Notes under the pieces: generated by a model | Told to the model about the DNA's origin: nothing | The model's input: only the letters and a program-made list of their open reading frames with translations | Database searches by the model: none | Part shown: in pieces, positions 23,948 to 56,631 of the stretch | Position numbering within the stretch: the stretch's first letter is position 1 | Layout: each line of letters starts with the position of its first letter | Source: Schmidtea polychroa | Lineage: Eukaryota | DNA: 64,000 bases | Reading direction: 5' to 3' | Assembly (NCBI GenBank): GCA_044892525.1 | Contig: CM097885.1 | Span: 16,990,001 to 17,054,000 of the forward strand | Made by a program: the position numbers and the translations under genes

Positions 23948-25012
23948 TATTATTATTATTATTATAGCTTTTAGATGTGGAGAAAATTTAATTATTCAAA
24001 GCATAGAAAATAATAAACATTTAACATTTAAAAATTATAAGAAATATAAGTAAATTAAATTCCATAATATTATTAAATTCTATAGTGTAATAAATATCAA
24101 AACTAACACTTGACATTTTCGCAGAAAATGCGACAGTAAATCAATACTTTTGGAAGAATTTCCCTAGTCCATTAGTGTGGATTTTCCAATTTTGTATTTT
24201 AAAGACTGTATTAAGCCTATTAAGTCCGCATATTCACATAATTCAAGAGATTTGATGTAATTAAAGAAACAATATAAAAGTAAACAAAAAACTCAAAAAA
24301 ATTATTCGACTTTTGATTTTTCTTATAATGCATCAAAATAACTGAAATACTAAGACAATAAAGTGATATAATGAATAAATGTTTGATCATTAAAAGACCA
24401 CTCAAACAACTGTTTTACGATATATTTTGGCAGGGTCACTGTTATCATCAGATAAGAAAGAAAAACTATAGATGCAATAGATATTCAAACAAATTATTTG
24501 CCTAATTTAATTACCCACAAATAAAATATCATTTATATCATATGAAAAAAGTCTGTAGAAATATCGTGTGCCTTACAAATTTTTTGATCTAGTCTTACAA
24601 ACAACTGTATTGCGTATTTCGTCTATGACAAGCAGAACTTTGGTTTATATTGATTTTGTTATAAACCAACCTTTTGTTGGGCTGAGTCGAAAACTTAATT
24701 GTTCAAAAGTAGGAAAATAAGAAAGTAGGACGTTAAAGAAAATAAAAATAAAATAAGCAAAATTAAGAATAAAATAGAATAAGATATAAGGAAAAAACAA
24801 TAATTAGGAAATAAGGATTAAAACAATAAATAAAAATAAGAAAAATTAAAATAGAACAATAAATTGACGAATAAATGATGTAAAATTTAATAAATAATAA
24901 GGAAATTAAGGAAATAAATAGAAAATATATTAAAAATAAAGGAAATAAGGAAAAATAACCAAAAAACAGGAAAAAGTAAATTAAATTGAAAAAATAAGCG
25001 GTACTCAATTCT

Positions 25013-25075
25013 GATTGGTCCGCATAAATGAAAAATTATTATATAAGCAGGCACCAAAATCATAAAAATCAGTGT
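25013..25075 (+). promoter_or_regulatory. Pol II promoter of the LTR-like element: inverted CCAAT, TATA and Inr
   Basis: GATTGG, then TATATAA at 25040 and TCAGT at 25069. The same order recurs at 29229-29290 and 52771-52820. Confidence 0.75.
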
Positions 25076-25533
25076 TAATTCAAAAACTTCATAGGTAAGT
25101 AAATTTTAAATATCATGCAGTGTTAATTCAAAAACTTCATAGGTAACGATCCAGAGACAGCCGCGACTCAAAATCAATTCAACGTTACATTTGCAATAGA
25201 AATCGACACCCGAAGAGTTACAGAATCCGAAATCAGCAGACTATTTTGTTTGAAAACCGAACATTATATTTTCGACTCAGCCTAATTCAATAGTAAGGAG
25301 ATTTTCTTTATGGTATTTATTTTAGAAGTTAATCGTACTTATGCATATTTGATGAATAATTAAAATCTTAATTTAAAGCAGTTTTCCTTTTCATTTGATC
25401 CCCCGTAATGATTTTAATAAAGTAAATGATTTAAATGTCTAAAAGTATTTACTAGTAACAAATGAATCATTGAGTAATTTTTATGATTAGTTTTTATGAA
25501 TTATCATTTTTCTGTGTTTAACTTAATGAGGAA

Positions 25534-25671
25534 CGTGGAGTTGAGATACTCCATGTCATGGTGTGAGGTGCCTTCAGGAGCTCAGCCGGTGGACATGGAG
25601 TTTTTCAATCACGCAGCTAGATTGGGCCGAAATGTGAAGGCTTCTTCACGGGTCCAATCGCTGAAGGTGAC
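25534..25671 (+). ncRNA. Structured cis-RNA element A, copy A (homolog at 29756-29892)
   Basis: Two hairpins with compensatory changes between copies, plus loop GCCTTCAG complementary to downstream CTGAAGGT. Confidence 0.65.
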
Positions 25672-27044
25672 TTAAAAAATATAGAAGAATGGAAACGAAG
25701 GAGAGTAGTGACATCTAATTAAATGAGATAGTCGTAGTAGTAGTGATCCACAGTGACTGAGCGAGTCTAAAATCTTCACATCTGCGATAGTTCTGTAGCT
25801 CTCGTGTTTTGGCAGTCTATTATCATCATCAGCTTTAGATTCCAGACAGTGTAATTTCGCTAATAGGGCAAGTATCATCTATTAACCAATTACTTTGATT
25901 TCGAAATAGCCACTCCCACTCAATTTCAACAATGAATCCAATTTAATAGTACTTAGCCTGACAGTAAGACAGTAGAATATAAGATCATCGAAAATTGAAA
26001 TTGAAAAATAAGTCAATACACGTGAAACATCTTTTATTTAAGTACAAAGGGAAAACAAATTTTCGAAATACCTGTATATGAGCCAATGTGTAAAACATTT
26101 TCTTCATTTAACTCCCAAAACAGTCGCCATCAACCAAGTAAGATAAGTAAAGACACCCAGAATGGTTTAATGAAACTTCCTCGAATGCGATATATCCAAT
26201 AATAGCGACGAGAGAGAATTTACACTTGAATTTAGACTAGTCGAGTGTAATCTAACACCAGTAAACAAATCCAGAATGCTATTCGTATTAAAATTCAGTA
26301 GAGCCACTATATTCGCCTGCGCGCACACACAAGTATTATGAGTCCAGTAGCAAATCCATATGGGATATCCATCAGCGATAATACAGTAAGTTATCAATCA
26401 TACTTGCGTGAGAAAATTTCCATACGTCACCCCGTTAGGTTTTTCCTGTGATTTGAATCAGCAGTAGGTAAATTCGCATTGAGCAATTACCCTGAGAGAC
26501 TCCACCCAGCACGCAGCATTCAGTTTCCAACTATAAGATAAAATCATCAGCCAGAGAGAAATTCACGCGGATTACTGATAACCGAAAGCGTGCAGTTGTA
26601 TAATTTAAGTCCAAAGTTTGGAACTTCTAAATTTAATCTGTATAACTAACGATTAACTAAACCCGCGGAATCTACCGAATTTTCATATTAGATAATTATC
26701 TTTTGTAAAGTAGTTAGTAATTTGATTTTGAGCTCTTGAATGTGATTTAACATTTTTAGGTAAAATTTAACTATTACTCATTTCACTTAATAGGTAGAAC
26801 TTCCATTTTTTTTTGTATTACCTTCCTTTGACAAAGTTATATTGTCGGTTGATATCTTTTAGTAAATAATTAATCTAAAGGGAATAAAGATCGATCTTCT
26901 AGGGAAAAGATCCTCTTGTCAGCCGACCCGGTTCCCTTTCTTGTCAGAATATCTGGGACATTCAACGAATAATGTGTCGGAACAATGATCTTATAAAATT
27001 AGTTTATCTCGTTTAGATTTATCTCTTCTTTATAGCCATCAGAT

Positions 27045-27792
27045 ATGCTACCAAACGCCAGACCGGCACTCAAACCCTGTTTATCTTGCTCAGATAAGAA
27101 TGTAGTGATCAAAGACTTACAAGCCCAGATAGGCCGTTATAAGAGAAAAATAGATGAGTTGGAGGGCACCTGGTTTAGCCCCACTCAAATGAAGGAAATC
27201 CAGAAGAGATTATATCGAAGTGAACATTGCCGTGACGCTCTAATCTCCGAGAGCCGGTCACAAAGAAGCTTAATAAAGGAGCAGTCCGAGGCCCTGCACA
27301 AGGTGTACCTGCAGGCGGCCACCACTAGAAAAATCGTAACTATCCCTATTCGCGAAGCCGATGAGCTTTTTCCGGCGCACCATGATACTTCTGCCAAATG
27401 GCCGTCTTCTTCCAAGAAATCTTGCCGACAGTGTGTAGAAACGGAACTCACCAAAAGACCCAGATCTCATCATCACGGGAACGAGCAGAGCACAAAGTGA
27501 AAGCACACCTACTGATACTGTGCCACAGAGGGATCAATCAACGTCGAAACCGAAGCGTAAGCAGTTATCGCGGGCAGAGCGTAAGAGACGACAGCGCGAA
27601 CGAGCAAACATCCAGCAAAGCACCACAGTGATGGAACCCCCAACTCCCCGAAACGTCAACCCAGCGGTGGTAGATCTAACTACCGGGATCTCCGCACGGA
27701 TTATCTCGGCTGCTGGCGTAGTATGGGAGGAATATGCCTCCGAATTTTTCGACATCGACGAATTATTACGGGATACCGAGTGGGAAAAATGA
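27045..27792 (+). pseudogene. LTR-encoded unknown protein, copy A (frameshifted near 27450-27500)
   Basis: KPCLSCSDKN...GTWFSP...SEHCRD, then KPKRKQLSRAERKRRQRER...FDIDELLRDTEWEK in a second frame. Splice acceptor TTTATAG just before the ATG. Confidence 0.8.
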
Positions 27793-28056
27793 GTAACTCC
27801 AGCAGAAAGCTCAGTGACTATCACCTCTATTATTAGCATCATATGTGATTCTCTGTCATACCATCCATCTGTACATATGGATCTTCTGTTGTTTTGTGTT
27901 TTGAGAATGAAATACATTTATTCCTGTTCCATTTATTTATTTTCGTTAGTGAGGGTTAGGCATAAAATTATATACGGATTGTTTGAAGTTTGATGAGTGT
28001 CAGCCAATTTGCATTCGATCTACCGGTAATGAGAGATTTGGATAATACGAAACGAC

Positions 28057-28200
28057 GTAAGACCTTCTATCGGCCGTCTAGTGTGGGAAGTCGAGACCTC
28101 AGTAAGGAGTAGTTTTAAGGCAGAAGCTCACCTGCTTACTGGCGTCTCGCCGGCATAGTGCAGTACCAACGTGAAGCAGTTCACAGGCACTATGTTGGAA
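28057..28200 (+). ncRNA. Structured cis-RNA element B, copy A (homologs at 32401-32545, 48345-48490, 56387-56525)
   Basis: Strongly conserved non-coding block; stems covary across four copies. Confidence 0.65.
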
Positions 28201-28920
28201 TGCGAGTTATGCGGGGTCCTACTCAGTGTTGGAAAGAGGAGAGGATTTTTGGTAGAGTGGGCAATCAACCCTTAGACTAGCCACAAATGAAATAGCCAAC
28301 CGAGTAAGCCACCCCAGCACTTTTATATATGACAAAAATATATTCTTATGCGGCTGGGAAAAACATAAAATAATAAACTGAAAAAAATAATAATAGATCC
28401 GTATTTTGTACACAAAAGTTACATTAGACTATAAGAAAATTTAAATCGTGTGTTAGAAATAATTCAAGAGAAAATGTTGTCTTTAAAGGGCCAGGAGAGT
28501 TGAAGCACTTACTCTTGGAATAAAACACAGGACATATTTTTTTAAAGGTTCTTAAAAATGGTGTTTTAATTTTATGAAGTGAAACAATTTACATTGCATT
28601 TATTGAGAAATCAGTAGTCATTTTTTAATAAATACAATGTCAATTGAAAAGAAATCAGAGGTGAAAATCGAAAGAAGTTTTTACGAAACAATTTAGTTCA
28701 AGCAAATTTGAAAAGGTTGAAAATAGATTCTCACAACATTTGTCAAAATTGGTATTCGGTTGCATGACTAATGATGATAAATTCAAGTCGATAATCATAT
28801 TAAAAAACGATTCTGAAGGACAATTTTATAACAACAATTGTAGAAAAGACATATCCTAAAGGAATTTAGGTTTATTGTATTTTTAATATAATTTAATAGA
28901 AAAAAATGAATTTATGCTAC

Positions 28921-31900
28921 TGTTGGGCTGAGTCGAAAACATAGATTGGAGATTAGGACAAACAAGATGTTAAATAAAATAAAAATAAAGCAAACAAATT
29001 TAAAAATAAATTAGAATCAAAATACAAAAGAAACAATAATTAAAAAATAAGAGTTAAAACAAAGAATAAAAAATAAGAAAATTAAGATAAGAAAAATAAA
29101 ATAACGTAAAATTCAGTAAATAATGAGGAATTAAAGAAATAAACAAAAAATATAATAAAAATAAGAAGAAATAACCAAAAAACAGAAAAAGTAAATTAAA
29201 TTAGAAAAACTAAGCGGTACTCAATTCTGATTGGTCCGCACACATGAAAAATTAATATATAAGTAAGCACCAAAATCATTAAAATCATCGTTAATTCAAA
29301 AAATTCTATAGGTAAGCAAATTTCGAAAGTATCAACCACCGTTAATTCAAAAAATTCTATAGGTAAATCCAGAAACCGCAGCGACTCACAATCAACCGAA
29401 ATTAGCCAAAGCATAATTAGTAATAGGAATCAACATTCAAGGAACCATCAGGATTTGAAATCGAACAGACTATCTTCAAAGACGAACAATTCATTTTCGA
29501 GTTAGCCCTCAAACCGATAACGATAGTAAGGAGATCTTTTATTTTTGAAAAGTTAATAGTAATCATGGATATTTGTTAAATAATTAAAATTTTGGTTTAA
29601 TGCGATTTTTTCTTCATTTGATCCCTTGTAATAATTTTAACTAGGTTAATGATTTAAATGGCTAAATGTAATTACTAACAATAAATGAGTTATTTCAAAG
29701 TTTTTATGATTTGTTTTATGAGCTGATATCTTATGATTTTAATTCTTATGAGAAACGTGGTGTTGAGACATTTCATGTCATGGTGTGAGGGGCCTTCGGG
29801 AGCTCAGCCGGTGGACATGAAGCTTTTCAATCACGCAGTTGATTCGGGCCGTAATGTGGGGGCTTCCCCACGGGTCCGTCACTGAAGGTGACCTAAACTC
29901 AGTTAGAATAGCAGCATATAGGGTGCATAATAGATTCTAAATCAAAAGAAAAGTAAGATTTACGATTTCACAGTGATTGAGGGAGTTACCATCTTTGTAC
30001 CTACAATGACTCTACCACATTAAGCATCATTCTTCGAGAAATTCATGCTATCACCATCTGTAAATCGGAATCTCTAATGTTACATTAATAATTCGATTAA
30101 CACTCATCTCTAACGAAATTATCCAACGTTGAGCTCTCCTTTTATCCTTCGGAAAATGAACCGATTCGAATTTTCACCTTTACATCTTGATGATCATATG
30201 ATAGAATTCAATAACAACATTTACGTAAAAATGGAAAAAATAATACTATATGTATATCAATATTTTATTTAAGTACATTCATAAATTAATTTCCGACTAC
30301 CTGTGTAAACGTTCTCTATGTGATCCATTCCGAATGACCATAGCTGAAATGAAATTGATAGACATCTAGAGAGTTTAGAAATTCCATCGTTAAGTATATC
30401 CAGCTCTAGAGAAATTACGACTTGTACTAACAAATTCCAACATTGCAAGTTAGATGAGAACTGACAGACGATGAATACGGCACCTAAAATATTCTCTAAT
30501 ACCACATGTGAAGTCAAGTAGAAATTCCACCGAATAGCACACGTGCATGTATATATTGTAACTGCGATTAGCGATATCCATATGTGAGTATGCGCGAGAA
30601 ATAGCATAATCAATGAGCAACCATTCACAGTAGGGAATTTCACCATGTGTCACACCCGATAGAATTTTTCATCTTTGTGAATAGTAACGGGTGAGCGTAT
30701 TAGATAACAGCTACCATGAGGTGCGACACTCAGGTTGTTGATTCTCAGATTTTTGTTTTGGATAAAAATCGTTTGTGTCGTTATCGAGATAAATTGAATA
30801 ATCAATAGACGATTACCGAGGTATGAAAATCCTTAAAGTCCACTTATTAGAAAATTGTAAATTAAGTGTTATAAACGACAATAGAAATTTTAATTAATTA
30901 TGATAGATAATAATCGAAATTTTAAACCAAATGCTGTAAATAATAATTAAACTTAGACAGATTTACCCATATAACTCCTTAGGCATTCACGTATGAACAT
31001 CATCAAGTGGGAAAAGGGAAAGTTTGGGGGAAGTAACTAGCGCTGTATATTTTAATTTTTGATCTAAAACATGATTTAGCAATTTCAAGAGAGATTAAGG
31101 AGTTAATAAATTCACTATTGTGGAATTTTCATACTTAATTTGTATTCGTCAAGACAATGATATAGGCGATTAATTAATATTTTGTAAATAAGGTACAAAG
31201 TGATAGCGATCAACCGTCTGGGGGGCGGAATTTTCCTCATCTGCTTGTCCTGTTTTCTTCCCTTGCCGAATATCCGACAGTGAATAAACAACTGCATCCG
31301 ATCAACGATTTTGTAAATGTAGTATATTCTGGTTATCATAGTTTCTTCTTTACAGCTATCCAACATGCTACCGAATGCCAAACCTGTACTACGCCCTTGC
31401 TTCTCCTGTTCTGACAAAAATTCTATTATCAAGGATTTGCAGTCCCAGATCGGTCGATACAAAAGGAAAATCGACGAACTGGAAGGCATATGGTTCAGCC
31501 CAGTGCAAATGAAAGAGGTACAGAAGAAGTTGTACCGCAGTGAACATTGTCGTGACGCTCTAATCTCTGAGAGCCGTTCCCAACGGAGTCTAATAAAAGA
31601 GCAATCGGAAGCTCTGCACAAAGTGTACCTGCAGGCGACGACTACTCGAAAGATCGTCAGTATCCCCATCCATGAAGCGGACAACATCTTCCCAGTGCAT
31701 CACGATACCTCTTCCAAGTCATCGTCTCCCTTCAAGAAGTCCTGTCGAGAGTGTGTAGAGACCGAGCTCTCACCTAAGCACCCGGACATCATCTTCACCG
31801 GAACCAGTAAGGCGCCACCCACCATTGCATCTACATCTGCAGCAACCCAGAATAGTCAGACGGCATCGAAACCTAAGCGACGGCAACTATCGAGGGCCGA

Positions 31901-32665
31901 ACGCAAAAAAAACAGCGAGAACGAGCGACCGCCAAACAGCACGAACAATCGGCGGGCAACCCGATTAACGTCAACAATTCCCCTTCAGTGATCGATCTGA
32001 CAACCGGGATCCCAGGGCGAATCATCTCCGCTGCTGGCGTAACCTGGGAAGAAAATGCCTTAGAATTTTTCAATTTGGACGAATTGTTAGCCGACACCGA
32101 GTGGGAAAAATGAGAATCCACGGTGGAGTGCTCTCAGCGATCGCAAATTTTCGGACTACGTTATCAATGTTTTCTTTCTTTTTCCTTTTCTCATTGAAGT
32201 ACATTTGTGGCGTATAAATTATCTGTGTTTGGTGTCATAAAATTGAAATAAACCATTTTTCCGTTTTTATATATTTTCCTGTGCGAGGATGTTCGGTATA
32301 GACTGTTTGTGAATATAGGTGAAAGCTTTCAAGGTTCAATGAGCGTTAACCAATTGCATCTAATACAGAGATAGTGAGGGTATGAATAATATGAATAGGC
32401 GTAAGTCCTTCTATCGGCAGTCAAGAGAAGGAAGTCGAGGCCTCAGTAAGGAGTAGTCCTAAGGCAGGGGCTCACCTGCTTACTGGCGTCTCGCCGGCAT
32501 GGTACATTTCCAACGTGAAGCAATTCACGGGTACTATGTTGGAGTATAGGTTGTGCAGGGTTCTGCTCGGAGTTGACAAAGTGATAGCTAACATATATGA
32601 AATGAACAATCATCTCTTAGACGAAAAGTTAAAATAGTTGGAGTCAACCGAGTAGCGCCCCAGCA
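28921..32665 (+). mobile_element. Giant solo-LTR-like element, copy B (3745 bp)
   Basis: TGTTGGG...CCCAGCA termini; TSD CTAC at 28917-28920 and 32666-32669. Confidence 0.92.
31365..32113 (+). pseudogene. LTR-encoded unknown protein, copy B (frameshift in an A-run near 31910)
   Basis: Homologous to copies A, C and D. The conserved tail RIISAAGVTWEE...LDELLADTEWEK is in another frame, ending at 32113. Confidence 0.8.
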
Positions 32666-35676: not shown

Positions 35677-35755
<79 letters not shown>

Positions 35756-38110: not shown

Positions 38111-40737
38111 TTGTTGGATGACAGAGGAAGAGTTATTGAAAATTTCGAGCTCAGTATTATAGAACAGGAGCTAATAAATATCGAGTAAACATATATACAG
38201 AATGCAGATGAAGAAAATGACAGAAGCAGGCAATTCAACTCAATACCAATGTCAAATCTATTTAATAAACAATTTAGTTTTATTAACTCGTGTTAACTTG
38301 GTATAATTTGTGATATTAATGAACAATTTATTTCATGGATATATTATCAATGTCCTTACCATTTTATTGTAAATAACTTATTGGTGGTTTTATAAATATT
38401 TTTTGTTATGTATTTGTTTTTGAATATATTTATCAGTGAACACTTAATTATAAATATATTTTAAAAAGGGGAGGTTTCTTTTAAAATAAAAATAACTTAA
38501 AATAATAAAACCATAGAATAAAAAACAGCTTGAGCTCAAGCAAATAACAACTTAAGGGAAGCGAATGACAGGTAGTTTTGAACAGTGCAAATAACAGATG
38601 GAAAGAAGTAAATAATAAATAATTTTTCTGTAATTTCCTTCCAACAATAATTGAAATAAATAAGGAAACATGTTTGTATTATAATACAAAAACATATTTA
38701 ACAATAATGCAGTAATTTAAAGCATAAATTTATTTGTGTAATAAAAACATTTCTTTTTATTTACATAAAAACATGACAATAATAATAACGGCAAAATGAT
38801 TGAATTTTAACATAATAAGAAATCAATTAAATAAATTAATACAACGATATAGTTAATGCATTAAATAAATAAAATTTTCATATGTAAACGCGCATGAAAA
38901 ATAGTATAAAATATCGACCTAAAATCAGTAGTGGTCGCCCAAAAATTTTTACCACTACAATAAACTAAAAAGGGAAAATCCTTATTAGTTTTTAAATTAG
39001 AACAGAACACAAAAGAAACGTTCAAACTTCACAAGCAACACAACACGCATATAACATATTGTAATGACAGTTATATTTTACATTTTCTAACAAGGGTTTA
39101 CAACGTTCAGTTATCTCGTTTGGCGTATGTCGCCTTTTAAAATGGTTAAGAAACCATTGGTGGGTTACAGGTAGTCAAACTTCTTACCTTTAGTCTTGCT
39201 TTTAAATCCTAATGTATTATTTAAAGCTTCGACTATGTTGTAGCCTAAAAGATTGGTCAAATGGTAAATTATATTACAAATAAATCGTAATTTATGTTAG
39301 AAATTAAATTACTTTTATAGATCAAATTGAAAATTTAATGGATTCACGCCATAAATTTATTTAAACTATATTTTATATTAAAATTCAAATTATACTTAAT
39401 TGGTAGAGAATTTAGACATTTAATGGTAGTTAAATAAAGGATTTATCAAAATCATATTTTATATTAGAAATCAAATTGTATTTAAGCGGTAGGACAGATT
39501 AGACATTTAATGATGATTACAGTATGAAGTTAATAAAATCACGCCATGGTAACCTTTGTGTTACTATACTAATAGTGTTTTTATTAAGAATTTTATTAAG
39601 AAAGAAGACATTTGGCGATGAAGATAGCCGCAAAAGAGCAGGAAAACACGGCTATGGAGGAAATGATCCTGCGACAATCTGGAAGGATCGTAGAGTTGGT
39701 CAACAAAGTAACGGAACTGGAAAGAAATAATAGTGGCTGTAATGTATAGTTATTTTTTTATATTTCAGCGTTCACAATTAGGAATTGTGAATATTATAAT
39801 ATAAATTGCCACCATCTGGGAAATCCAGATTTTCAAAAAAACTATATAGCGATAATTTACTATGGTAAATTATCGCTATAGAAAATTGAAAAAATAAAAA
39901 AAATCGATAGGAAATTAAATAACAGTGATTATTACAAAGAACGAAATTAACGAAGAAGATTAATTAAAAGAAGATAAAGTTAAATAAATCTATTCTTAAA
40001 TTTAATACTGTTTCAAAGAAATCGCTATCCTAAAGTCTGTGATTTTTACGGAGAACGAAATCAACGAAAGACATTAAAAGAGGATAAAGTTAACCAAGTC
40101 TATTCCTTAAACTTAATCCTAAAAGGATCGTAAAAGAATAACTAAACTAAATATTAAAAGAAGATTAACAAGAAATAATCGGTGGTAAAGTATTCAAAAG
40201 AAAATTTGAACGCCAAACTAACGCGTGGTAAATATTAAAGCGAAAATCAGAGTGAAGCTAAAGTTAGTGGAAATATTAAAAAGAAAACCATAAAGAAACA
40301 GACGACAACGAAACATCAAAAGAAAATTTGAGAGCCGAAAATTTTAATTCTGTGCAGTCCGATTTTCTGAAGTATTATTTATTTTTGTTAAATAAAGTTG
40401 TAATTTAATTTAATCGTTATTGTGTATTTATTATTATCTTACAAACAAACTCAGCACGCACCCCGATTGTCCCGCCACAAGTTTTAACGGAGACTCTTTC
40501 GGGTGCTTCAAATTTCTTGACAATAACAACAATTTCATTCCACACACAAATATAATAAGAACATTCTATTCCATTAATTTTGAAAAACAAAAATCAACAA
40601 TTAACTAAACGGTAATTATTATTATTTATTTATATAACTAGTCGGTGGGACGGTATCCTTTGGGTACCCCATCTCAACCCTAGTGTTAAAATTAAATTAA
40701 CTTCAAATTTTAATTATATAACTATTGTAGAAAAAAA

Positions 40738-44182: not shown

Positions 44183-44250
<68 letters not shown>

Positions 44251-44319: not shown

Positions 44320-44356
<37 letters not shown>

Positions 44357-44645
44357 ATTATTATTTTCCTCATTGATATTATTATTATTGTTATTATTAT
44401 TAGTATTGTGGTTAAGTAGTCTAATATTGCTGCAAATTTTCCATTAAATAATTTTTCATTACCTAATACAAAAATTTTAAATTTCCAGGAAATTTGCAAG
44501 CCATATTCGTGATAGAAAGGATGATATGAAATTTTTGGCGTACATCTATTTGATAAGATGTAATTGTTATTATTATTAATATTTATTATTATTGTGATTA
44601 TTATTATTATTATAATTATTATTTTCCTCATTGATATTATTATTA

Positions 44646-44677
<32 letters not shown>

Positions 44678-44768
44678 GTGATTATTATTATTGTTGTTAC
44701 AGTATGGTAAATTAGACTTATTATACACATGCAGATTCGAGGTCGAATCTAAATTAAAGGGGGAGATA

Positions 44769-45616
44769 TGTTGGGGTTCAACAAGAGAGGCACAAAAATG
44801 AGGTGAAAAATTGACAAAAACATCAAATTCACAAATAAAATTTAAAGTACAAAATATTAATTAAAAATCAAAAATTTTAGAAAAAATTAATATTTTCTGG
44901 GGGAAACTGGTATGGGCGGATGCTAAATAATGAGACGAGTTCAGCTATAATAAAATAAAATCAATGGGGGCCCCTAAAAGGAATAAATTACAAAAAACGA
45001 AAATTAATTAAAAATTAATTAACTAATGGAAAACCCGAGCTAATGGAGAACCCGAGCTAATGGGAAACCCGATACAATGGAAAACCCGAGCGAATTGATA
45101 AATCCAATTTTGGGAAGGCAATTAATTTAGTCGGGTAAAAAGTAATAAGCGCCGTCAAAGAAAATGAGCCAATTCCCTATAATTGAATTATACCTCCAAG
45201 AGGAAACCCGGGGGGAAATAATACCAAAAATAATTGGCAAAAATAAAGTCAATTACCAAACGAGTATAAAAGCAACTGGCAAGAAAACAAAATGCCAGTG
45301 GGTCGAAGAAAAGAAAATAGAAGTTTGACGAGAGCGAAAAAGGAAATATTAAAGTTAGTAGAAATCAAACCATTTAAAAATCGAACGTACCAGAAAGGGA
45401 CATCTCCCGTTGGAAGATCTACCCCTGCGTGAGATTTGTTGGCAAATTGAAAAGAGCAGACAAAACCTGATTGTATCAAGTGTGAGTAAACTAATACAAG
45501 TGTAAAAGTGTAACTGCATCAGTGTCAATAAAGATTTTGTGTTGGGTTATTTATTTATTTGGAAAAGAACACAAAGGAGTCAGACCGTAGTACCGACTTA
45601 CATTAAAAACCCAACA
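44769..45616 (+). mobile_element. Unrelated ~850-bp solo-LTR-like sequence
   Basis: TGTTGGGGTT...AACCCAACA termini, internal short tandem repeats, AATAAA near 45527. Flanks (GATA/AAAG) do not match. Confidence 0.6.
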
Positions 45617-48610
45617 AAAGTAACAGCCATATAGTGATTGAAGGAGTAGATGTATTAATCAAATGAAATGAAGAGTATTTGAGAGTTCACACAGTGATTG
45701 AGGGTGTCACACTATTAAATCGTCGGACCGTCTTTGCTAAGCTTGGAGTATCTCTATTATCTGGAAAAATCCAAACAATGGTTTATTGAATTCGTCTGAA
45801 AATTAGTGTCATCTTATAGGATATATTATCTGAGGGCATAATGATTGTGGCATAATTGCGAAAGGTACGATAGTCTATGCAAATGAGCAAATTCCAATCT
45901 TGGTATAGCATAGCGAGTAGTCGAATGTCAGCATTTTTTTTGAGTTGTTTTCCAGAGATCGTCGAGATATTCGGTAAAATCCCAGTCGATGTTGATGACG
46001 ATGATGAAATTCCATAATGAAAGCTGGCAACAGCATAGATCGGAAGTTTCCGTAACTAATCATACGGTGAGAATCATGCGACATATGGAATAACGAAATA
46101 TCTGTGAAACTAACATCAATTAGATAAAATCACAATATTCAGTTTCGATAATAGATCGACAGCATCAAAGTTCACGTTAGATAAGACAAAGGAGAATGCA
46201 TGCAGCACTAGTAAATCCACTCATGCACTAGGCAACTTTCGCCATGACTGTCACAAGCACACACACCGATTCATAACGAGCTAATCGACATACGAGTATA
46301 CCAGTAGCCAAGGCATAGCACTAATGATTTATTGGTAGATGAGTTCACACACACCACAAACATAGCGACCGTTATCGGCAAAGATCAAGCCGCTAAAAAT
46401 TCCTTCACTCACAATTTCATGTTATCTTGAGCAGGTAAAGCCCAACGTGAGTGAGAACAAACCTGATAGATTGGATCAGTGAACTTTAGATCCAAAACAC
46501 TAGTCGGATGATTTTTGGTTACTCCAATATTTAATGCCTTTAGTCGAGTCAAATTTTCATCTAACCCGTCTGGTTGATTGAATCGTTGTTTTTCGTTGCA
46601 TTAAATTAATAATAGTAATCGGCTAACTTATAATGTAATATTAAATTAATAGTTTAATGTAAATATATCTCGCTGATCTAACCATTTTACTAAACCAACT
46701 TTAACTTAATCTCAATCGTTTAATAATTCTATTTGGGTTTATCTCATTTACTTCATAATTTCGTTAAATGGGCGTTTTAAGTAACCATATAAATTTCAAA
46801 TCAATGATGATAAGCAATCCACCAAAATTTCGATTAGATGTTATAACGTTTTTTATTGCCAGAACATTATTGTCTTATTACTATTAGATTACTATTATTA
46901 ATATTATTACACATTATAAACCCTCAAACAACCAAGTATAAAAACTGTCAAGTGGGGAAAAGGGAGAAGAGTCTTGGGGGTAGCTAGCGCCGATATCGCG
47001 TAATTATCAATCTAAAAATGAAATCTAGTATTTGTAGTAAATTCTTAGAGTTAGTAAATGCACTCAATTGAAAGAATAAAAATCTCCCAGTTAATTCATT
47101 TGCATTCAAGTCACCTGTATTCAGCATTAGTTAAATTTTGTAAATCATGTATAGGGTAGAAACGAGTCGACATCTTAACAATTCCTTTACCATCTAATCT
47201 GTTCTTCTTTTTCTTTTGAATATCCAAGGTAGTAACTGAGTAGTGGCACCAAATGTATGACATTTCGAATATCATATCTTAATCTCACCTTTATAGCTAG
47301 CCAACATGATGCCAATTGCCAAGCCCGTTTTACGTCCCTGCTTCTCCTGCTCGGACAAAAATGCAATTATCAAGGACCTGCAGACCCAGATTGGGCGATA
47401 TAAAAGGAAAATAGATGAGTTGGAGGGCACATGGTTTAGCCCCACTCAAATGAAAGAAATACAGAAGAAGCTATACCGTAGCGAACACTGCCGGGACGCT
47501 CTAATCTCTTAGAGCCGCTCACAAAGGAACTTGATAAAAAAACAATCCGAAGCGCTACACAAAGTGTATCTGCAGGCGTCAACCACGCGAAAGATAGTCA
47601 GTATCCCCATCAATGAGGCCGACAATCTCTTTCCGGCACACCACGACACCTCTTCTAAGTCGTCGCCTCTTTCAAGAAGTCCTGCAGAGAGTGCGTAGAG
47701 ACCCAGCTCTCGCCCAAACAACCAGACATTATTTTCGTTGGAACGAGCAAAGCGCCACCTGCGATCGCTTCTACATCCACAGTACCTCCAACTAATCCAA
47801 CGACATCGAAGCCAAAGCGTCGGCAATTATCAAGAGCCGAACGTAAAAGGAAGCAGCGGGAACGAATAACCGCCAAACAGAATACACAACCGACGGAACT
47901 TCTAAGTGAAGTCAGCGCCCATTCGGTAGCAATAGGTCCGACATCAGGAATCTCAGGGCGAATTATCTCCGCCGCTGGAGTAACTTGGGAGGAAAACGCC
48001 TCCGAGTTTTTCGATTTAGATGAGTTACTAGCGGATATGGAGTGGGAGAAATAAGAATGCTCCCGTGAATTGACCCTATCGTCCGGAACATTGTCGAACC
48101 GAGTTTATCGTGTCTTTCTTTCCTTGTTTTTCTCTCATCCCGATATCTCTGTTGTATGTAAATCATCGGTGTTTTATATGTTTAATGTTACAATAAACAA
48201 TTTTATGTCTTTACATCATTTTCGTTTGTGAGGAATTCAGTATGACTGTAATAAATAGAGTTGAGTGTTCTCGAAATTCAAGGAGTATCAGTCAGTTTGC
48301 ACATAAACCAGAGGTAGTGGAGTGGATTGATAATTCGAATAGACGTAAGTCCTTCTATCGGCAGTCAAGAGATGGAAGTCGAGGCCTCAGTAAGGAGTAG
48401 TCCTAAGGTAAGGGCTCACCTGCTTACTGGCGCCTCGCCGGCATAGTACAGTTCCAACGTGGAGGAATTCACGGGTACTATGTTGGAGTATAGGTTATGT
48501 GTGGGCTCTGCTCGGGATTGACAAAGTAATGACGAGCATAATCGGAATGGGCATTCATCTCCTAGGCCAAAAGTTGAACTAATGGTGGTCAACCGAGTAG
48601 TGCCCCAGCA
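45617..48610 (+). mobile_element. Giant solo-LTR-like element, copy C (5'-truncated)
   Basis: Homology to copy B starts just after structure A; carries the ORF and structure B; ends CCCCAGCA. Confidence 0.85.
47306..48054 (+). pseudogene. LTR-encoded unknown protein, copy C (TAG at 47510, frameshift near 47665)
   Basis: RPCFSCSDKN...GTWFSP...; KPKRRQLSRAERKRKQRER...FDLDELLADMEWEK. Confidence 0.8.
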
Positions 48611-50289: not shown

Positions 50290-51060
50290 TAATCTACTCC
50301 CTTACCATGAAAGACCCATCAAAAAGGGTACATCATTAGATAATTTATCTATCAACTTTAGACATCAAGTTCATTCACGTCTCTGACAAAGATAACGTAG
50401 TTGCTGCTATCGTTCCAGAAACATTTCAGCATAGATTTCAGCAACATTTCATAATAGACGGTATACATTACGATACAATGTATAAAAACACAAGTAGGTC
50501 TATTTTACACTCTTCTCTTCGGAAAGAAGCATTTCTCGAGATTGACAATCTATACCATACAGGAATCAATTTCACGTACCACCTTTTAAATCAAAAAGTA
50601 AACTGGTTCTCATTTATTACAGGCGTAAAACAGTGGGTACCTGAATGTGAAGTTTGTCAACAACAAAAAGTGAACAAACACATTAAACCACCAATCACTC
50701 CATTCGCAACAGATTCAAGATTCAACACACTTCACATAAACCTAGTAGGCAAATTCCCAACAGACGATGGATTCTTCTACATTCAGACAGTGATTGATCA
50801 GAAAGCACACTGGTTTGAGGCTGTTCCCGTCCTTGGAATCATCGCACACAGGCCCACACATGTTTTAGTATTCACCTGGTTTTTACATTACGGAATTCCA
50901 ACCTCAATAATCACAGACCAAGGTACTTAGTTTGGATCAGACCTTTTTGATAATCTTACCACCAGCTTTGGCATCAAACATATATGAATCAACTCATATA
51001 ACCCTCAAACAAATAGTTTTGTTGAGTGCGCATATCGGACTTTATGTTGCCAGCTTTAGT
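50290..51060 (+). pseudogene. Decayed Ty3/Gypsy pol fragment (RNase H end and integrase)
   Basis: CEVCQQQKV, FNTLHINLVG, YGIPTSIITDQGT, YNPQTNSFVE remnants. Confidence 0.8.
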
Positions 51061-51115
51061 CTTCAGAATGGCTCCAATACTTCTACATGATAACACTGGC
51101 CCACATATCTGAAAA

Positions 51116-51340
51116 GTGTCTATGCAAAAATTGAACGAGCTTGGAAACGAAACTTTGCTTCATCCACCATATTTACCAGACCTGGAGCCAACGGTTTTCT
51201 ATTTCTTCAAACATCTCAACAACTACCTACTTGACAAATGCGTCACAAAACAAGGTGATGATGAAATGGCCTTTAACAAGTTCGTCGACCCCAAACTCCT
51301 GATTTTTATGTTGTATGGAATAGACAAATGTCAAAAATGA
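51116..51340 (+). pseudogene. mariner transposase C-terminal fragment
   Basis: HPPYLPDLEPTVFYFF resembles the mariner HPPYSPDLAPSDYHLF motif. Confidence 0.75.
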
Positions 51341-52272: not shown

Positions 52273-55200
52273 TGTTGGGCTAAGTTTTGAAGTAGAGAAA
52301 AACTGGGTTAAATCGGGAAACGAGCCGCGAAAAATATAAACGAAATATAATAAAAATAAATCCCCATCAAACCTCAATAATAAATAAGGAAACAATAAAA
52401 TACCTATAAAAAGAAATAAGAATAAGTGATAAATAAATAAAGCCCTTAAGAATTAGAAATAGGACATAAGAGAAATGAGTTAAAGCACAATAAATAAAGT
52501 AAAAATAGAATAAGCAAAAAAGTAAGAGAAAATAAACGAGAAATTAAAGCAATAAATAAAAAATAAAAATATCTTTAAGTTTAATTAAAACAAAAATTGT
52601 ATTATGATAAAGTAGCAGTGAACCCGCAGAAAAAATAGGAGAAAAATAAGAAAAATAGGAAAATAAATAAAATAATAATAAGAAATAAGTTAAGTTATTA
52701 AAAGCTAATATATTATAATGAAAACATAAAATAATAATAAATATTAAAAATTACAACCTAACTAAGTCCTGATTGGACGAAAAATAGTATATAAGAAACG
52801 CTAAAAATCAGTAGAGTACCACTTTAACCAACAACTCTACAGGTAAAATTTGTAAAACTTATCACGACCACTTTAACCAACAACTCTACAGGTTTCAAGA
52901 TTTTATTCACAAACTACTACAGAGGACTAATCCAAAGAAGACTAATTTGAATTGAGGAAGAAACATACAGCGAACTATTTACAGCATTATACAGGAAAAC
53001 CTTAGCCGATTTAACCCAGTTATTTAATCTCAAGGTATGGTAGGATATTTTTAGGTTTGATTTTATGATAGATATGATGGAATTTAATAAATATTTATAA
53101 TTGATATTAAATTTTGTAAATAACAAGGAAAATTTGTTCAATAAATTTATTTAAAAACAGAACCTGCCTTTCTTCAAGGAGCCGACGACTGTACCTTCTG
53201 ATGATTTCAAGTATGATGCCAAATGGAGAGAGTAGCCCCGAGGAATATTATGATATGTAGCCAAGAGATGTTGCGGATATTGGATCAGGAGCAAGCGATA
53301 ATAGTGGATACGATGCCAATACTGTCAGGGAATATTGGGTTGGAAAATGAGAAAGCATCATACTTGGAACTCAGACGATATGGTCGCCGGTAATTTGATT
53401 CATTTACTTGATTATTATTTGTTCCATTTTTATTATTTATATCTGAAATTTGTTTTTAAATTGCTGAATGCGAAAGAGTCGACTGGTCCCTCGTGATCGT
53501 CCGAGAATGGCGGCAGAGATGATTGCCTTCTTGGGTGTGTTATGAGGGGTGTAGAGGCTCAGTAGGTTAGGATAACAGGCTGAAAGATGGAATTTCTTCA
53601 CCGAGCTCGCATCGTTCTTAGTAAGTTCCATAGCTTCAATAAGTCACATCGATACTTCTAATAATAGCGGAGGAGATTTAAGTTGAGAGCCGAAGACAGT
53701 TCGGAGTTGAGATTGACAATTTCATCAACGTATTAAGAATCCACATAGTTCGGCGAAATTTCTTCATAACGGTCAACCCGTCAGTCGGGATAGTGAACGA
53801 GAATGTTGTCGACGAAGCTTGGAGTGTAAATCCAGTAAATCTCGTAGAGTATTGTTTTCCTCGGTATACTAGTAGAATCTGAACCGTCGATATGTTAGCG
53901 ATGACACCCGTCGACGAATGTACTTTTAAGTTAAGTGATTAGCTTCGAATCGCTGATAAACATCGTCTTCCCTGAAAAGAATGTAAATAAGTAGGAGAGG
54001 TTATCAGATTACTCACGGAAAAATGACAGAAATCGCTGACAGATTTATCAATTGATCACTGACTGAATTGAGGAACCACGATAGGAGTTATCAGTGACTT
54101 GAGAAATGAATTGCCGGCAGATGATAACTGATCGAATTGAATGACCAACGAAACCAGATAATACCGATAATAAATTTCCACGAGGAATAATCTAATTGAC
54201 GCGTGGGTAGACCTTGTCTTGTACTGGCTGCGTAATGATCGAGGCAGATTAAAAATTCTAGCTTAGTTATTGCTCATCGGATTACTATGTACAATTCCAG
54301 GGTGATACTTGTGAACACTTAGTGATAATTCCAATATATTATGTAACTGTACACACCTACACACTCCATCGTGAATAGTCTCCCAGTAGGGTAGCAGAGT
54401 ACTCTTGGCATTGGAATTTGGCCGTGATGTCACAATTACATAGTAACCTACTCGTAATTCCCTGAGTTGGTAGGCTGGTGTGTATGAACAACAGAGCAGA
54501 TCGTCTCCACTGCGATTTAATACGACGTCGAATTTTCTCCACTATCACATAGAAATAGACACACATGAAAGCTCAAGGTGGAGATACTCCAACAATGCAT
54601 ACCGACTCAGTTAATAAATATAAGAAAATGCACACATCTACAGGTAGGCGTCACTAGGGCGACAGAAGTAGCGCGATTTTTAAAAGAATTTTTGGAATTT
54701 AAATTATAATATAATTAGCTAATAGTATATATTTAAAGTCCTTTATGTAAATTCGTAATCACAATGCATCATAAGGAGAGATAAATTTTTCCTGCGTTCT
54801 AGCAATACGGAGTAGGTACAAATTGATAAACTGAAATCCCCAACAATCGGATGCTATTCTTTTCCATTAATTACGAACGTAAATATGTTTGACTATAGCA
54901 GCCGGCTAAAATGCAACGAGTATGAGTTATCCGACCCGAGGGTAAAGATAGAGTTTTCATCGAACAAGTTAAAAGCGAGGATTCCCCGTTTTCTTCTCTC
55001 CCTCATCTTGAATCAATAAATCAATCGGAAGGTTGTTTCCTAAATGAGTGAATGAGGAGTGCTGAATTGTGTGAAAACAAGTTGTTTTATTGTATGCTGT
55101 GGCGTGGTATGATGAGTGAAATCTTTGAGTTTAGTGTCTCGATAGAATTTGGAACTAGATATATTTTAACCGTTAAAACGGATTACTAGAGAAAACTTAG

Positions 55201-56631
55201 CTGAGACATTAAAAACATGAAATTTATGAATCAAAACACTTCGTGAAAATTACAGAATTATAACTAATGAATTCTTGTACTGGATACCTTAATAATTATC
55301 GCAATTCGGTTTGAACCATGATTAATTTTCTAGATGACAACACCATCCAATAACGCCCAAGAACTTCGTCCGTGTTTCTCTTGCGCTGACAAGAACTCGG
55401 ACATCTCTCAACTTCATTTATATATAGGGGCCCTCAAGAAGAGGATAGATCTTTATGAAGGAACGTGGTTCTCCCCGCCACAGATGAAGGAGGAAAAAGC
55501 TAAGATCCTCAGGTTAGAACATTGTAGGGACAGCCTACTAGAAGAAAGCCGATGCCAAAGGCTCACAATAAAAGCACAATCAGAAGCCCTCCATAAGGTC
55601 TACACGGAGGCAGAAATAGCAAAGCGGGTACGCGAATATCCCGTATTGGATGGATCGAATGTCTTTCCTCTCCATCACCAGTCATCTACAACTCCCACCT
55701 CAGCTTGTCGAGGGCACGGTTCCCATCTACCGCCCATCCCAGCCCCAGTGCTGTCAGGATACTTACCTATGAAAGGCGGTCCATCTGACCCAATTCTGGC
55801 CCCGATCCTAGGGGCACCCACAGTATCTACTGCTGTTGGAGGAAATCCGCCATCACGCAAACGCAAACACCCAACTAGGGCCGAGAAGACTAAGAAACGA
55901 AGAAATGCAATGAAGGCACTCGAGGCTTCTTTGTTCGCAGCGCAGACGACAATAGCAGAGATATCCACCACTCATACGATTCCCTCGAAAGAAGTTTTCC
56001 GTATCATTCCAGCTAACGGCATCAAGTTTATCTCGGATTGTAGATTGCCGGTAGACATCGACGAGTTAATTGCCGACGGAGAAAACTTCAACTAAAACGG
56101 TTCGCGAGTGATCCTGAATGTATTTCGAGTCGTGAATTGACTGATAAACTTCGTTAATATTGTGCATCCTAACCGTCCATATGATATTGTATTAATAAGT
56201 GTGATGATGTTTGTTTATTTTCATTTCGGTATTAATATATTTTGTCTATTTAGTTCTGTTTTATAAAGATTTTCATATGTTTGGTTTTTTGAGAATAAAA
56301 TGGTTCAGTATTACGGAAGGAAAGCTAGTAGGCTAACGGTCGTTCCCTTGGACCAGGATCGAACCAAGACTGAAACATGAATAAGGGTAAGTCCTTCTAA
56401 GGCACCAGTGAACCTGAACCGCGAGCGGGCTATCAGTAGTCCTAAAATAGGGGCTCACCTGTTAGTCAGCTCCGACCCGTATGGGCACTACCAACGTGGA
56501 ACATCACCACGGGCTCATGCGTGGGAAGATGTAAATGATCATTTGGCGTATGCATGGGAGGTGTCTGAGCTAACCAATGCGGTCGGTATGATAATGATGG
56601 TGTGAGTTTTCTTCTCCCTCATATGCCAACA
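52273..56631 (+). mobile_element. Giant solo-LTR-like element, copy D (4359 bp, divergent subfamily)
   Basis: TGTTGG...CCAACA termini; TSD CAAC at 52269-52272 and 56632-56635; same internal layout as copies A and B. Confidence 0.92.
55334..56095 (+). CDS. LTR-encoded unknown protein, intact copy (253 aa)
   Basis: RPCFSCADKN, GTWFSP, EHCRD, QSEALHKVY, RKRKHPTRAEKTKKRR, RII.A.G, DIDELIAD. Acceptor TTTTCTAG abuts the ATG. Confidence 0.85.
   Translation: MTTPSNNAQELRPCFSCADKNSDISQLHLYIGALKKRIDLYEGTWFSPPQMKEEKAKILRLEHCRDSLLEESRCQRLTIKAQSEALHKVYTEAEIAKRVREYPVLDGSNVFPLHHQSSTTPTSACRGHGSHLPPIPAPVLSGYLPMKGGPSDPILAPILGAPTVSTAVGGNPPSRKRKHPTRAEKTKKRRNAMKALEASLFAAQTTIAEISTTHTIPSKEVFRIIPANGIKFISDCRLPVDIDELIADGENFN

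Follow-up and report, generated by a model that had tools for sequence, protein, structure and literature searches.

The three complete TG...CA units in the 64-kb window of Schmidtea polychroa DNA analysed here are almost certainly solo LTRs of recently active, env-bearing Gypsy elements of the giant Burro type, and, as far as DNA can tell, each long LTR contains, 3' of its own promoter, a real protein gene whose short leader is spliced to an acceptor at the ATG. The lengths that the first-pass annotation had given for these units, and their 4-bp target site duplications (TSDs; CTTT, CTAC, CAAC), were confirmed (Table 1). Of the two partial copies that it listed, only one was found within 24675-56631, namely unit U3, its 5' part being replaced by an unrelated LTR of ~850 bp; the only other partial LTR, the start of a short-type one at 63675-64000, lies beyond that range. 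The unit names U1, U2, U3 and U5 denote copies in the window and are distinct from the U3, U5 and R regions of an LTR. Units U1, U2 and U3 share 68-77% DNA identity and are ~59% identical to unit U5 over the ORF start, i.e. they are homologous. The 5' tract of units U1, U2 and U5 is A-rich, and all three have CCAAT and TATA boxes, GT donors, an AG acceptor that precedes the ATG by 0-9 nt, the ORF, RNA module B and a poly(A)-type signal. The common layout proposed earlier held in all these parts and failed for RNA structure A, which is absent from unit U5. Likewise, an ORF had been assigned to all complete units; among the copies in the window it is intact only in unit U5.

Table 1. Positions of the LTR units and their features in the 64-kb window
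Feature	Position	Strand	Remarks
Unit U1: solo LTR, type 1, TSD CTTT, 3,645 bp	24675..28319	+	TG...CA ends
Unit U1 CCAAT box and TATA box	25011..25047	+	
Unit U1 exon 1 (25 nt from TATA+30, predicted start site) and 48-nt intron 1	25070..25142	+	intron 1 ends in exact exon 1 copy
Unit U1 long GT-AG intron (predicted)	25293..27035	+	splicing by homology to unit U5
Unit U1 intronic AATAAA	25416-25421	+	
Unit U1 RNA structure A	25532..25667	+	within long intron
Unit U1 LTR ORF	27045..27792	+	frameshifted
Unit U1 RNA module B	28050..28200 (approximate bounds)	+	starts with donor-like GTAAG at 28057
Unit U2: solo LTR, type 1, TSD CTAC, 3,745 bp	28921..32665	+	TG...CA ends
Unit U2 long intron (predicted)	29526..31355	+	
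Unit U2 intronic AATAAA	29680-29685	+	
Unit U2 structure A	29754-29888	+	within long intron
Unit U2 LTR ORF	31365..32113	+	frameshifted
Unit U2 AATAAA	32247-32252	+	upstream of module B
Unit U2 RNA module B	32395..32545 (approximate bounds)	+	
Unit U3: 5'-truncated type-1 LTR	45617..48610	+	without promoter and structure A
Unit U3 broken ORF	47309-48054	+	stop and frameshift
Unit U3 module B	from about 48340	+	
Unit U5: solo LTR, type 2, TSD CAAC, 4,359 bp	52273..56631	+	TG...CA ends
Unit U5 CCAAT and TATA boxes	52769..52795	+	
Unit U5 exon 1	52818-52842	+	
Unit U5 intron 1	52843-52891	+	ends in exact exon 1 copy
Unit U5 exon 2, non-coding leader	52892..53034	+	fused straight to ATG in intron-less genomic element
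Unit U5 long intron, 2,299 nt, GT-AG	53035..55333	+	precisely missing from both LTRs of one element
Unit U5 intronic AATAAA	53140..53145	+	aligns across type-2 LTRs; putative R end
Type-2 long-range stem, then second conserved GT donor	53176..53390 (approximate bounds)	+	
Type-2 RNA structure A'	53476..53562	+	not homologous to A
Unit U5 LTR ORF, 253 aa	55334..56095	+	intact
Unit U5 post-ORF AATAAA	56294..56299	+	putative poly(A) signal of LTR-gene mRNA
Unit U5 RNA module B	56384..56540 (approximate bounds)	+	

Related full-length elements are found elsewhere in the genome, where copies do flank gag-pol and related LTRs bound ~30-kb elements, as the assignment to giant Burro-type Gypsy elements had anticipated. 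About 30 same-strand LTR pairs at 20-34 kb spacing were counted by eye among 150 scored genome matches, and the spacing, mostly 26-27.5 kb, together with a ~4-kb LTR yields the element size; the LTR of one full-length element is 96.2% identical to unit U5. Checked elements have paired direct LTRs with TG...CA ends, TSDs ATAC, CTAA and CTTA and a pair identity of 99.7-99.9%, two of them combining TSDs and 99.9% identical LTRs with the Burro domain set. Full-length elements contain PR-RT-RH-IN in this order and an env-like fusion protein (Monjiviricetes_fusion, E 5.6e-73) between gag and PR; their cargo comprises MATH (E 1e-25), ankyrin (E 5e-18) and RING domains and a weak Bcl-2 match (E 0.025), with no BIR match in the element ORFs scanned. 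The primer binding site (PBS), complementary to the 3' end of an arrayed tRNA-Pro(TGG), has 691 exact matches vs 0 for the reversed control. At four distinct 3' LTR junctions no polypurine tract was found, its position being occupied by a conserved GC hairpin with compensatory changes.

Burro/GYPSM1 are giant Gypsy-like LTR retrotransposons of planarians, and the passages describing Burro in PMC6431247 agree with our elements in the size of ~30 kb, gag with CCHC knuckles, a Bcl-2-like motif, the env-like protein between gag and PR, PR-RT-RH-IN, ankyrins and MATH/TRAF. Unlike in that description, TRAF/MATH and RING are on separate ORFs here and three further ORFs precede the 3' LTR; moreover, the text of those passages, figure aside, mentions neither a gene nor an intron or structured RNA within the LTR.

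That the LTR gene is spliced, as the first-pass annotation had it, is borne out by one genomic element (TSD CTTA), both LTRs of which have lost the 2.3-kb GT-AG intron exactly; as this loss suggests, the gene is probably expressed from a fully spliced mRNA. The intron-less RNA, devoid of A', was nevertheless packaged and integrated once. A YAG lies at most 6 nt from the ATG in 15 of 15 internal ORF starts (5 ORF types, 3 elements) vs 18% background, and at most 12 nt away in 23 of 24 LTR ORFs vs 26% background, where it must be considered that the genome copies are related and that neither such counts nor covariation represent independent events. The splice layout of the element supports the earlier idea of a complex-retrovirus-like organisation: the single leader would also be spliced to acceptors preceding five internal accessory ORFs, and the full-length RNA would have to retain the intron and read through both poly(A) signals of the LTR. 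The 25-nt exon 1 is duplicated and both copies are kept identical within LTRs, suggesting that intron 1 is rebuilt at strand transfer.

An AATAAA is found within 200 nt 3' of the major donor in 20 of the 23 LTRs that were scored out of 26 (it is absent from the other three), although composition predicts 0.18-0.45 sites per LTR, and this recurrence suggests that the gene is located in a U5 region of ~3 kb. We consider it likely that transcription starts ~0.4-0.55 kb into the LTR, that the intronic AATAAA marks the R end and that the remaining ~3 kb form a giant U5 region which carries the gene along with A/A', B and another poly(A) signal. A less probable arrangement, anatomical in nature and compatible with any function, is a real gene within a 3.5-kb R region, in which case the signal behind the ORF would end the genomic RNA and the intronic AATAAA would go unused. 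Most type-1 LTRs do have a poly(A)-type signal after the ORF (in most type-2 LTRs variants take the place of the post-ORF AATAAA), and the intron-less element fits both layouts. Against this arrangement, the three short-LTR subtypes inspected over their whole length have an AATAAA after the donor but lack one ahead of B, and in type-2 LTRs the post-donor signal aligns in 8 of 8 usable sequences amid unalignable flanks (a ninth, mis-anchored row was left out).

The 253-aa protein of unit U5 consists of a CxxC motif, a coiled coil, a linker, a basic helix and an acidic-hydrophobic tail. The motifs KRRQLSRAERKRKQRER and FDLDELLAD that had been highlighted earlier are present in unit U3, which is broken; basic stretch and tail of the intact unit U5 protein differ. 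In the N-terminal part pN is 0.08 vs a pS of 0.71-0.83, and in the basic region dN/dS is 0.07-0.10; judged from these comparisons, in which synonymous sites are saturated, the LTR gene is under strong purifying selection. This largely refutes the very improbable view that the ORF is a passenger, i.e. captured or neutral sequence without function for the element. An abundant ORF-less LTR class (19 of 40 PBS-anchored 5' LTRs) might speak for a passenger, but pol is absent from this class in all four complete elements examined, which therefore needs helpers. These short-LTR relatives, which keep LTRs, PBS and 3' junction, presumably resemble LARD-type non-autonomous LTR elements; in contrast to those, they have also shed the LTR gene, yet retain the neighbouring RNA modules.

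Comparison of the protein with known families, which might have revealed an unrelated origin, returned none: no Pfam family reaches threshold and a PDB sequence search gave no match. Pfam REV matches 0 of 25 family members and, below threshold (E 0.0013) and over the Arg run only, 1 of 16 distant homologues, 10 of which have an Asn followed by an Arg run. A Rev-like fold is not supported. Rev folds as a helical hairpin, whereas the N-terminus of the LTR protein models as a long parallel coiled-coil dimer (homodimer score 0.61 vs 0.31 for the best control, contact agreement at least 93%, pLDDT at least 83), a mark that 17 of 29 solved pairs attained in a eukaryotic benchmark, as against 0 of 30 single chains. 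Most invariant residues are in the coiled coil and few in the basic helix; the basic stretch, found in 24 of 24 representative proteins, also has a plain bipartite NLS pattern and may be an NLS.

We tentatively propose that the LTR product acts on the element's own RNA, a reading we place slightly before transcriptional transactivation. The LTR mRNA, fully spliced and shortest of all, would serve as the 'early' message; its product, a nuclear coiled-coil dimer, would bind structured leader RNA via the basic helix, the universal module B being its most probable target in preference to A, and would, once bound, favour the read-through, intron-retaining genomic RNA, with poly(A) use or splicing blocked or export aided. 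The LTR protein may thereby function like Rev/Rex without belonging to that family.

Slightly less likely is a transcriptional transactivator similar to foamy-virus Tas, Tax or Tat. Here the dimer and its basic helix would bind promoter DNA or nascent leader RNA, the acidic-aromatic C-terminal helix would recruit coactivators, and A and B would be packaging or priming signals for Gag and RT. The tail has a net charge of -4 to -10 in 23 of 24 proteins and is acidic-aromatic in both LTR types, as are stretches in distant homologues, and its composition appears to fit an activation domain at least as well as an NES. The strict NES pattern occurs in 2 of 24 tails (0.32 for shuffled tails), a scarcity that does not support a Rev-type NES and that we count for transactivation; the relaxed pattern, present in 23 of 24, is uninformative as the shuffled rate is 0.75. 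The predicted parallel dimer also suits a transactivator, as does the donor upstream of the poly(A) signal, known from foamy viruses (PMC3694450), which use Tas (PMC12789967). However, the protein matches no DNA-binding family, its nearest Atlas clusters, including bZIP at 0.77, stay under the lead threshold of 0.9, and the non-autonomous relatives keep A and B, their promoter region being only ~60% identical to that of autonomous LTRs.

Rather unlikely is a host-modulating accessory factor without target in the element RNA, e.g. an anti-silencing, anti-apoptotic or ubiquitin/NF-kB-pathway adaptor binding a host protein via the conserved surface of the coiled coil and the LxxLL/LD-like tail. 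Other cargo of the element is of this kind (RING, Bcl-2-like, TRAF/MATH, ankyrin), the coiled-coil residues R60, L68, E71, R73, R76 and Q82 are shared without change by distant families, and the tail resembles the LD consensus LDXLLXXL given in the part of 10.1101/278903 cited here, by which LD-like motifs can also double as NES. Furthermore, an IAP of Burro1 is reported, second-hand, to protect stem cells (cited passages of PMC13465017). Such a factor leaves the LTR location and the selected basic helix unexplained, and no Pfam family at threshold points to it.

The structured RNAs described in the first-pass annotation are corroborated by covariation. In module B 93% of cells are paired and 25 of 41 pairs show two-sided changes, in structure A 96% and 12 of 52; such values were attained in 0 of 300 shuffles, and in slid controls pairing was 35-49%. 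Structure A, present in units U1 and U2, is not common to both LTR types, although the protein is, and two unrelated structured domains are found at its position in unit U5. This distribution, together with the integration of an RNA without the entire intron, does not support the earlier idea that the protein binds a structure in its own intron. The short-LTR relatives have B, mostly A, and no ORF. A, A' and B all covary and fall outside the predicted spliced mRNA; packaging signals have the same topology, and A and B might be no more than signals for packaging or priming that Gag binds. An Rfam search of 24000-57500, ribozymes included, gave two chance-level matches, neither over A or B.

Comparison with retroviruses, as covered by the cited portions of PMC12789967 and PMC3694450, shows partial likeness to several systems. 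The element shares a basic motif with lentiviral Rev/RRE and deltaretroviral Rex/RexRE (PMC12789967), and would also have in common with them a small regulatory protein from fully spliced mRNA, oligomerisation, structured RNA limited to unspliced RNA, and multiple splicing; it differs in lacking family-level homology and, in most tails, a strict NES pattern, in the predicted long parallel coiled coil and in having the gene within the LTR. The major donor upstream of the LTR poly(A) signal recalls foamy viruses, in which use of the poly(A) signal depends on U1 binding and RNA structure (PMC3694450). A gene at the LTR, putatively regulatory here, is shared with foamy virus Tas, to which the LTR protein has no sequence match; Tas uses an internal promoter near env (PMC12789967), whereas the present gene lies behind the promoter of the LTR. 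HIV nef, MMTV sag and rem exon 2 also lie inside LTRs, but in the U3 region upstream of the start site (PMC12789967). Our gene is downstream (U5 region or R), which would make a complete transcription unit of every LTR, solo LTRs included.

It is doubtful, though conceivable, that an invertebrate Gypsy lineage independently evolved a Rev/Rex-like early-late switch as a whole, i.e. a gene in a 3-kb U5 region expressed from every LTR including solo LTRs, whose dimeric Arg-motif protein binds a conserved RNA fold of the U5 region and licenses genomic RNA that reads through and keeps the intron, plus a leader intron of 45-50 nt which the genomic RNA loses from its 5' end by splicing and which is restored in every cycle as strong-stop DNA lands on the second exon 1 copy. 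Our literature search found no Rev-like system on record for a Gypsy element and no published account of a Burro LTR gene, the latter search excluding the two primary Burro reports (Grohme 2018, Lee 2026).

If a selected, spliced gene does follow the start site, many solo LTRs would be self-contained transcription units and could supply the regulator in trans. Burro elements are piRNA targets, and one of them is reported to support planarian stem cells (PMC13465017, in the portion cited). The duplicated exon 1, in turn, may allow an intron to persist through reverse transcription. This duplication, the recurrent intronic AATAAA and the donor-like GTAAG that invariantly opens module B are features beyond those of the first-pass annotation.

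The three complete units of the window, U1, U2 and U5, and the partial unit U3 are long terminal repeats (LTRs). The first-pass annotation, which had proposed a giant LTR family with Rev/RRE-like regulation, had looked to paired copies around gag-pol, and such pairs were found. When the 781-Mb genome (four very large contigs) was searched with residues 1-109 of the U5 protein, 6,339 candidates came up at first look, and the 150 of them that were scored contain about 30 same-strand pairs that are 20-34 kb, mostly 26-27.5 kb, apart. One type-2 pair examined (type 2 is the type of U5, type 1 that of U1-U3) has the target-site duplication (TSD) ATAC and LTRs that are 99.906% identical; its interior holds a primer-binding site (PBS), an ORF with a RING domain, a gag gene with CCHC knuckles, a weak Bcl-2 motif, a fusion protein of Monjiviricetes type, PR-RT-RH-IN, ankyrins, a RING-TRAF/MATH ORF and more unannotated ORFs. 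The internal set is the same in a type-1 pair (TSD CTAA, LTRs 99.875% identical). As this architecture agrees with that of Burro, as far as the available text of PMC6431247 describes it, the elements are, judged by their gene content, Burro-type members, which points to a planarian host. The gene inside the LTR is apparently new: the literature searched, including the available parts of PMC8532177, PMC11410931, PMC13465017 and PMC13238120, does not describe a gene in a Burro LTR. Grohme 2018 and Lee 2026, which lie outside that search, may describe LTR transcripts or ORFs, i.e. a prior description is possible.

The PBS motif occurs 691 times in the genome without mismatch and its reversed control not at all; the motif is complementary to arrayed tRNA-Pro(TGG) and is set apart from the LTR by a T-rich spacer of several bases. 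Copies of tRNA-Pro form a large array, repeating every 475 bp, from G000:C1:130901009 (whole-contig numbering) onward, and the pattern has 2,164 matches genome-wide. At the 3' LTR junctions of the loci L070/L071, L105, L187 and L190 a polypurine tract is absent and its place is taken by a conserved GC-rich hairpin with compensatory changes; the 5-mer TGATT stands both after the 5' LTR and before the 3' LTR. Short tandem repeat arrays, possibly candidate Gag-binding or packaging repeats, occur in the leader of the full-length element L068, between the RING ORF and gag, and also in short LTRs between the structured RNA modules A and B.

Within the window, the earlier count of three complete units with 4-bp TSDs holds, and that of two partial copies does not, as only one, U3, lies between the start of U1 and the end of U5. 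The ORF is intact in U5 only, and type-1 and type-2 proteins share 35-39% identity; the protein motifs quoted earlier as family features turned out to come from the broken U3 and not from the intact U5 ORF. Positions 1-34635, including U1 and U2, are a 100.000% copy of G000:C1:16953769-16988403, 36,232 bp upstream, the result either of a tandem duplication in the very recent past or of an artefact of the assembly. Pairing of U2, as a 3' LTR, with its identical copy 36 kb upstream was ruled out, since the entire stretch is duplicated there. An unrelated LTR of ~850 bp, which has the same terminal 7-mers as Burro LTRs, a canonical purine tract in front and no TSD, adjoins and truncates U3, and the window ends in the start of a short-type LTR of an abundant non-autonomous family.

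Features of the window and their positions
Feature	Position	Description	Basis
U1	24675-28319	complete TG...CA unit, 4-bp TSD	self-comparison and reading
U2	28921-32665	complete TG...CA unit, 4-bp TSD	self-comparison and reading
U3	45617-48610	5'-truncated unit	self-comparison and reading
U5	52273-56631	complete TG...CA unit, 4-bp TSD	self-comparison and reading
U5 ORF	55334-56095	253 aa
Unrelated LTR	44756-45616	~850 bp
Short-type LTR	63675-64000	start only
Polinton/Maverick-like genes	600-14000; 16520-20152
Exonuclease-like ORF	40714-41958	RNase_T, E 0.045
Decayed Gypsy integrase fragment and several transposase-like fragments	50340-50930; 20989-21933; 59067-63326		transposase-like fragments by eye

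The LTR gene is real and under selection. Across 24 non-redundant ORFs, drawn from 60 near-full-length ones with truncated ORFs removed first, the N-terminal 100 residues have a pN of 0.08 vs. a pS of 0.71-0.83, and dN/dS is 0.07-0.10 in the basic region, 0.08 in the type-1 tail and 0.16-0.26 in the type-1 linkers. Moreover, the long intron is spliced, as the first-pass annotation had predicted. In one genomic element (TSD CTTA, LTRs 99.75% identical) exon 2 is fused to the ATG in both LTRs by exact loss of the GT-AG intron 53035-55333; this shows, at the DNA level, that the intron is removed by splicing from a transcript extending as far as the PBS. The U5-type exon 2-ATG junction has two matches in the genome, both in this element, and a genome search with two other junction patterns gave no further intron-loss copies. 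In contigs from four RNA runs, the 15 joints listed of 100 include no GT-AG joint, which weighs neither way.

A YAG lies at most 12 nt from the ATG in 23 of the 24 LTR ORFs (background 26%), and at most 6 nt from it in 15/15 starts of internal accessory ORFs (background 18%). These internal starts represent five types of ORF from three elements, and the first or the second ATG was accepted. The YAGs near the ATGs of LTR and internal ORFs are probably alternative acceptors to which one leader is spliced, as in complex retroviruses.

In 20 of the 21 long LTRs the ~25 nt in front of the first GT donor recur where the 44-51-nt intron 1 ends. In 18 of these 20 LTRs the exact repeat starts 28-33 nt downstream of the TATA, and in 18 of the 20 its two copies agree at all of 24 nt, the 12 distinct versions having a mean identity of 50% among themselves. 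In U5 the predicted start site is 52818 (TATA+30), and the predicted splice junctions are 52842/52892 and 53034/55334. The simplest model for this duplicated exon 1, as read from the sequences, would be that intron 1 is rebuilt at strand transfer. Exon 1, beginning at the putative start site, would be the start of R, and intron 1 would be removed from the 5' end of the genomic RNA; strong-stop DNA would then anneal to the second exon-1 copy in the unspliced 3' R, restoring intron 1 and homogenising the copies in every cycle. Identical copies might also arise by slippage or conversion between the repeats, and the two LTRs of the intron-less element differ in the exon-1 repeat, a difference for which a deletion after insertion would account as well. 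The literature search found no reports of spliced R regions in retrotransposons.

An AATAAA follows the major donor by 51-167 nt in 20 of 23 LTRs examined (the first 23 of 26). It aligns across type-2 LTRs, the surrounding sequence being otherwise unalignable, and no other such signal follows the promoter in four of the five listed short LTRs; the fifth has a pair of neighbouring ones. In U5 the signal lies at 53140-53145. Because the signal is recurrent, alignable in type 2 and the only one in most short LTRs, R probably ends at this intronic AATAAA, which would place the gene in a U5 region of ~3 kb. This order of donor before poly(A) parallels that of foamy viruses (available part of PMC3694450), and the retroviral LTR ORFs named in the available part of PMC12789967 lie in the U3 region.

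The RNA folds of the LTRs covary. Module A, in the intron of U1 and U2, has a structure conservation index of 0.88 over 11 sequences and z-scores of -2.1 to -7.2. Module B, which follows the ORF, has little support from folding energy (z +1.2 to -4.0) but strong support from covariation: over 24 sequences 93% of its cells pair and 25/41 pairs show two-sided changes, counts that are inflated by kinship, with none of 300 shuffles as high and slid controls paired at 35-49%. A is replaced in type 2 by a hairpin of another kind, A', together with a long-range stem and a second conserved donor; stem and A' covary in eight sequences, with a kinship-inflated pair count that 6-7 of 300 shuffles reached. 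B starts with an invariant, donor-like GTAAG and contains an invariant stretch that is complementary to a 5' splice site and resembles the 5' end of U1 snRNA. Rfam gave no match on A or B. Judged by eye, no full core of hammerhead, HDV-like, twister or pistol type fitted, and the all-pairs covariation screen, among the rows listed, was too noisy for defining pseudoknots.

Among 40 PBS-anchored 5' LTRs, 20 have ORF homology, 19 form a short-ended class lacking it (1.55-1.8 kb in those whose start was located) and one is ambiguous. The four complete short-LTR elements read are ~13-15 kb long, with a gag remnant in three and pol in none. Short-LTR elements retain B, and most subtypes also A; such retention in ORF-less relatives is the behaviour expected of cis-acting signals, whose reader may be Gag, RT or the LTR protein. 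One short-LTR subtype carries an unrelated GC-rich segment instead of A, and the family also occurs in a head-to-tail array with a 13.55-kb period (G000:C1:77268872-77323112).

The AlphaFold2 model of the U5 protein (pTM 0.30) has helices at residues 17-42, 48-100 and 182-213 and disordered linkers. Residues 8-116 were modelled as a parallel homodimer with a score of 0.61 (best control 0.31), with 93% or more of the contacts shared between runs and a pLDDT of at least 83; on eukaryotes, the mark for this score was reached by 17/29 solved pairs and 0/30 single chains. The modelling supports such a parallel homodimer, and the residues that are invariant out to distant homologues lie mostly in the coiled coil. 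Pfam returned no family at threshold for the U5 protein and 25 members, nor any support for a UBAN-like or canonical bZIP reading. A PDB sequence search had 0 hits, Foldseek with the low-confidence model no match at E <=0.001 (generic helices only) and the ESM Atlas no assignment (best score 0.85, leads only); none of the 581 candidates from a word-index protein search was significant. Profile searching across 1.84 billion proteins yielded 16 homologues, mostly chimeric gene models; the ten looked up are all singletons without a name. These public models (P0001-P0016) join the LTR domain to host domains unrelated to it, which would be expected if intronic solo LTRs gave an acceptor to gene predictors or real transcripts. 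With two distant homologues as queries, the S. polychroa genome yielded copies of no more than 30-47% identity, and six loci sampled from these searches are further type-2-like subfamilies.

An Asn followed by an Arg run, present in 10/16 homologues, recalls the Arg-rich motif of Rev, and one of the 16 has a sub-threshold REV hit. As an NES, the tail failed with strict patterns, which match 2/24 tails at a shuffled rate of 0.32; relaxed patterns match 23/24 and are uninformative, given a shuffled rate of 0.75. The tail is an amphipathic, acidic helix of LxxLL/LD-like type; motifs of this class overlap with those of NESs and coactivators (available part of 10.1101/278903). By homology and predicted fold the protein does not belong to the Rev family, but it may act in a similar way.

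The function of the LTR protein is conjectural. Under the inferred layout, the genomic RNA would have to retain the leader intron of 1.7-2.3 kb, read through two poly(A) signals and leave six or more acceptors unused, and no message would be earlier or shorter than that of the LTR gene. Because of these demands and this layout we tentatively favour an RNA-level switch as its role, a conjecture that may well fail, over a transactivator, which seems rather unlikely, and a host-directed factor, which seems less likely still. If an RNA target exists, B would be a better candidate than A, since B is universal and A is type-specific and was dispensable in one packaging event. The literature searched contains no account of a Rev-like system in Gypsy elements; the available part of PMC13524379 mentions neither Burro nor planarians, and that of PMC7264820 covers internal extra ORFs.

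Outside the LTR units, the window contains Polinton/Maverick-like genes, which encode a protein-primed PolB, an rve integrase with chromodomain and an adenovirus-type protease. A second PolB-like frame has one interrupting stop and no Pfam PolB match, and was identified by eye and DNA similarity. The exonuclease-like ORF is in frame past a single stop, and a decayed Gypsy integrase fragment and several transposase-like fragments complete the set.
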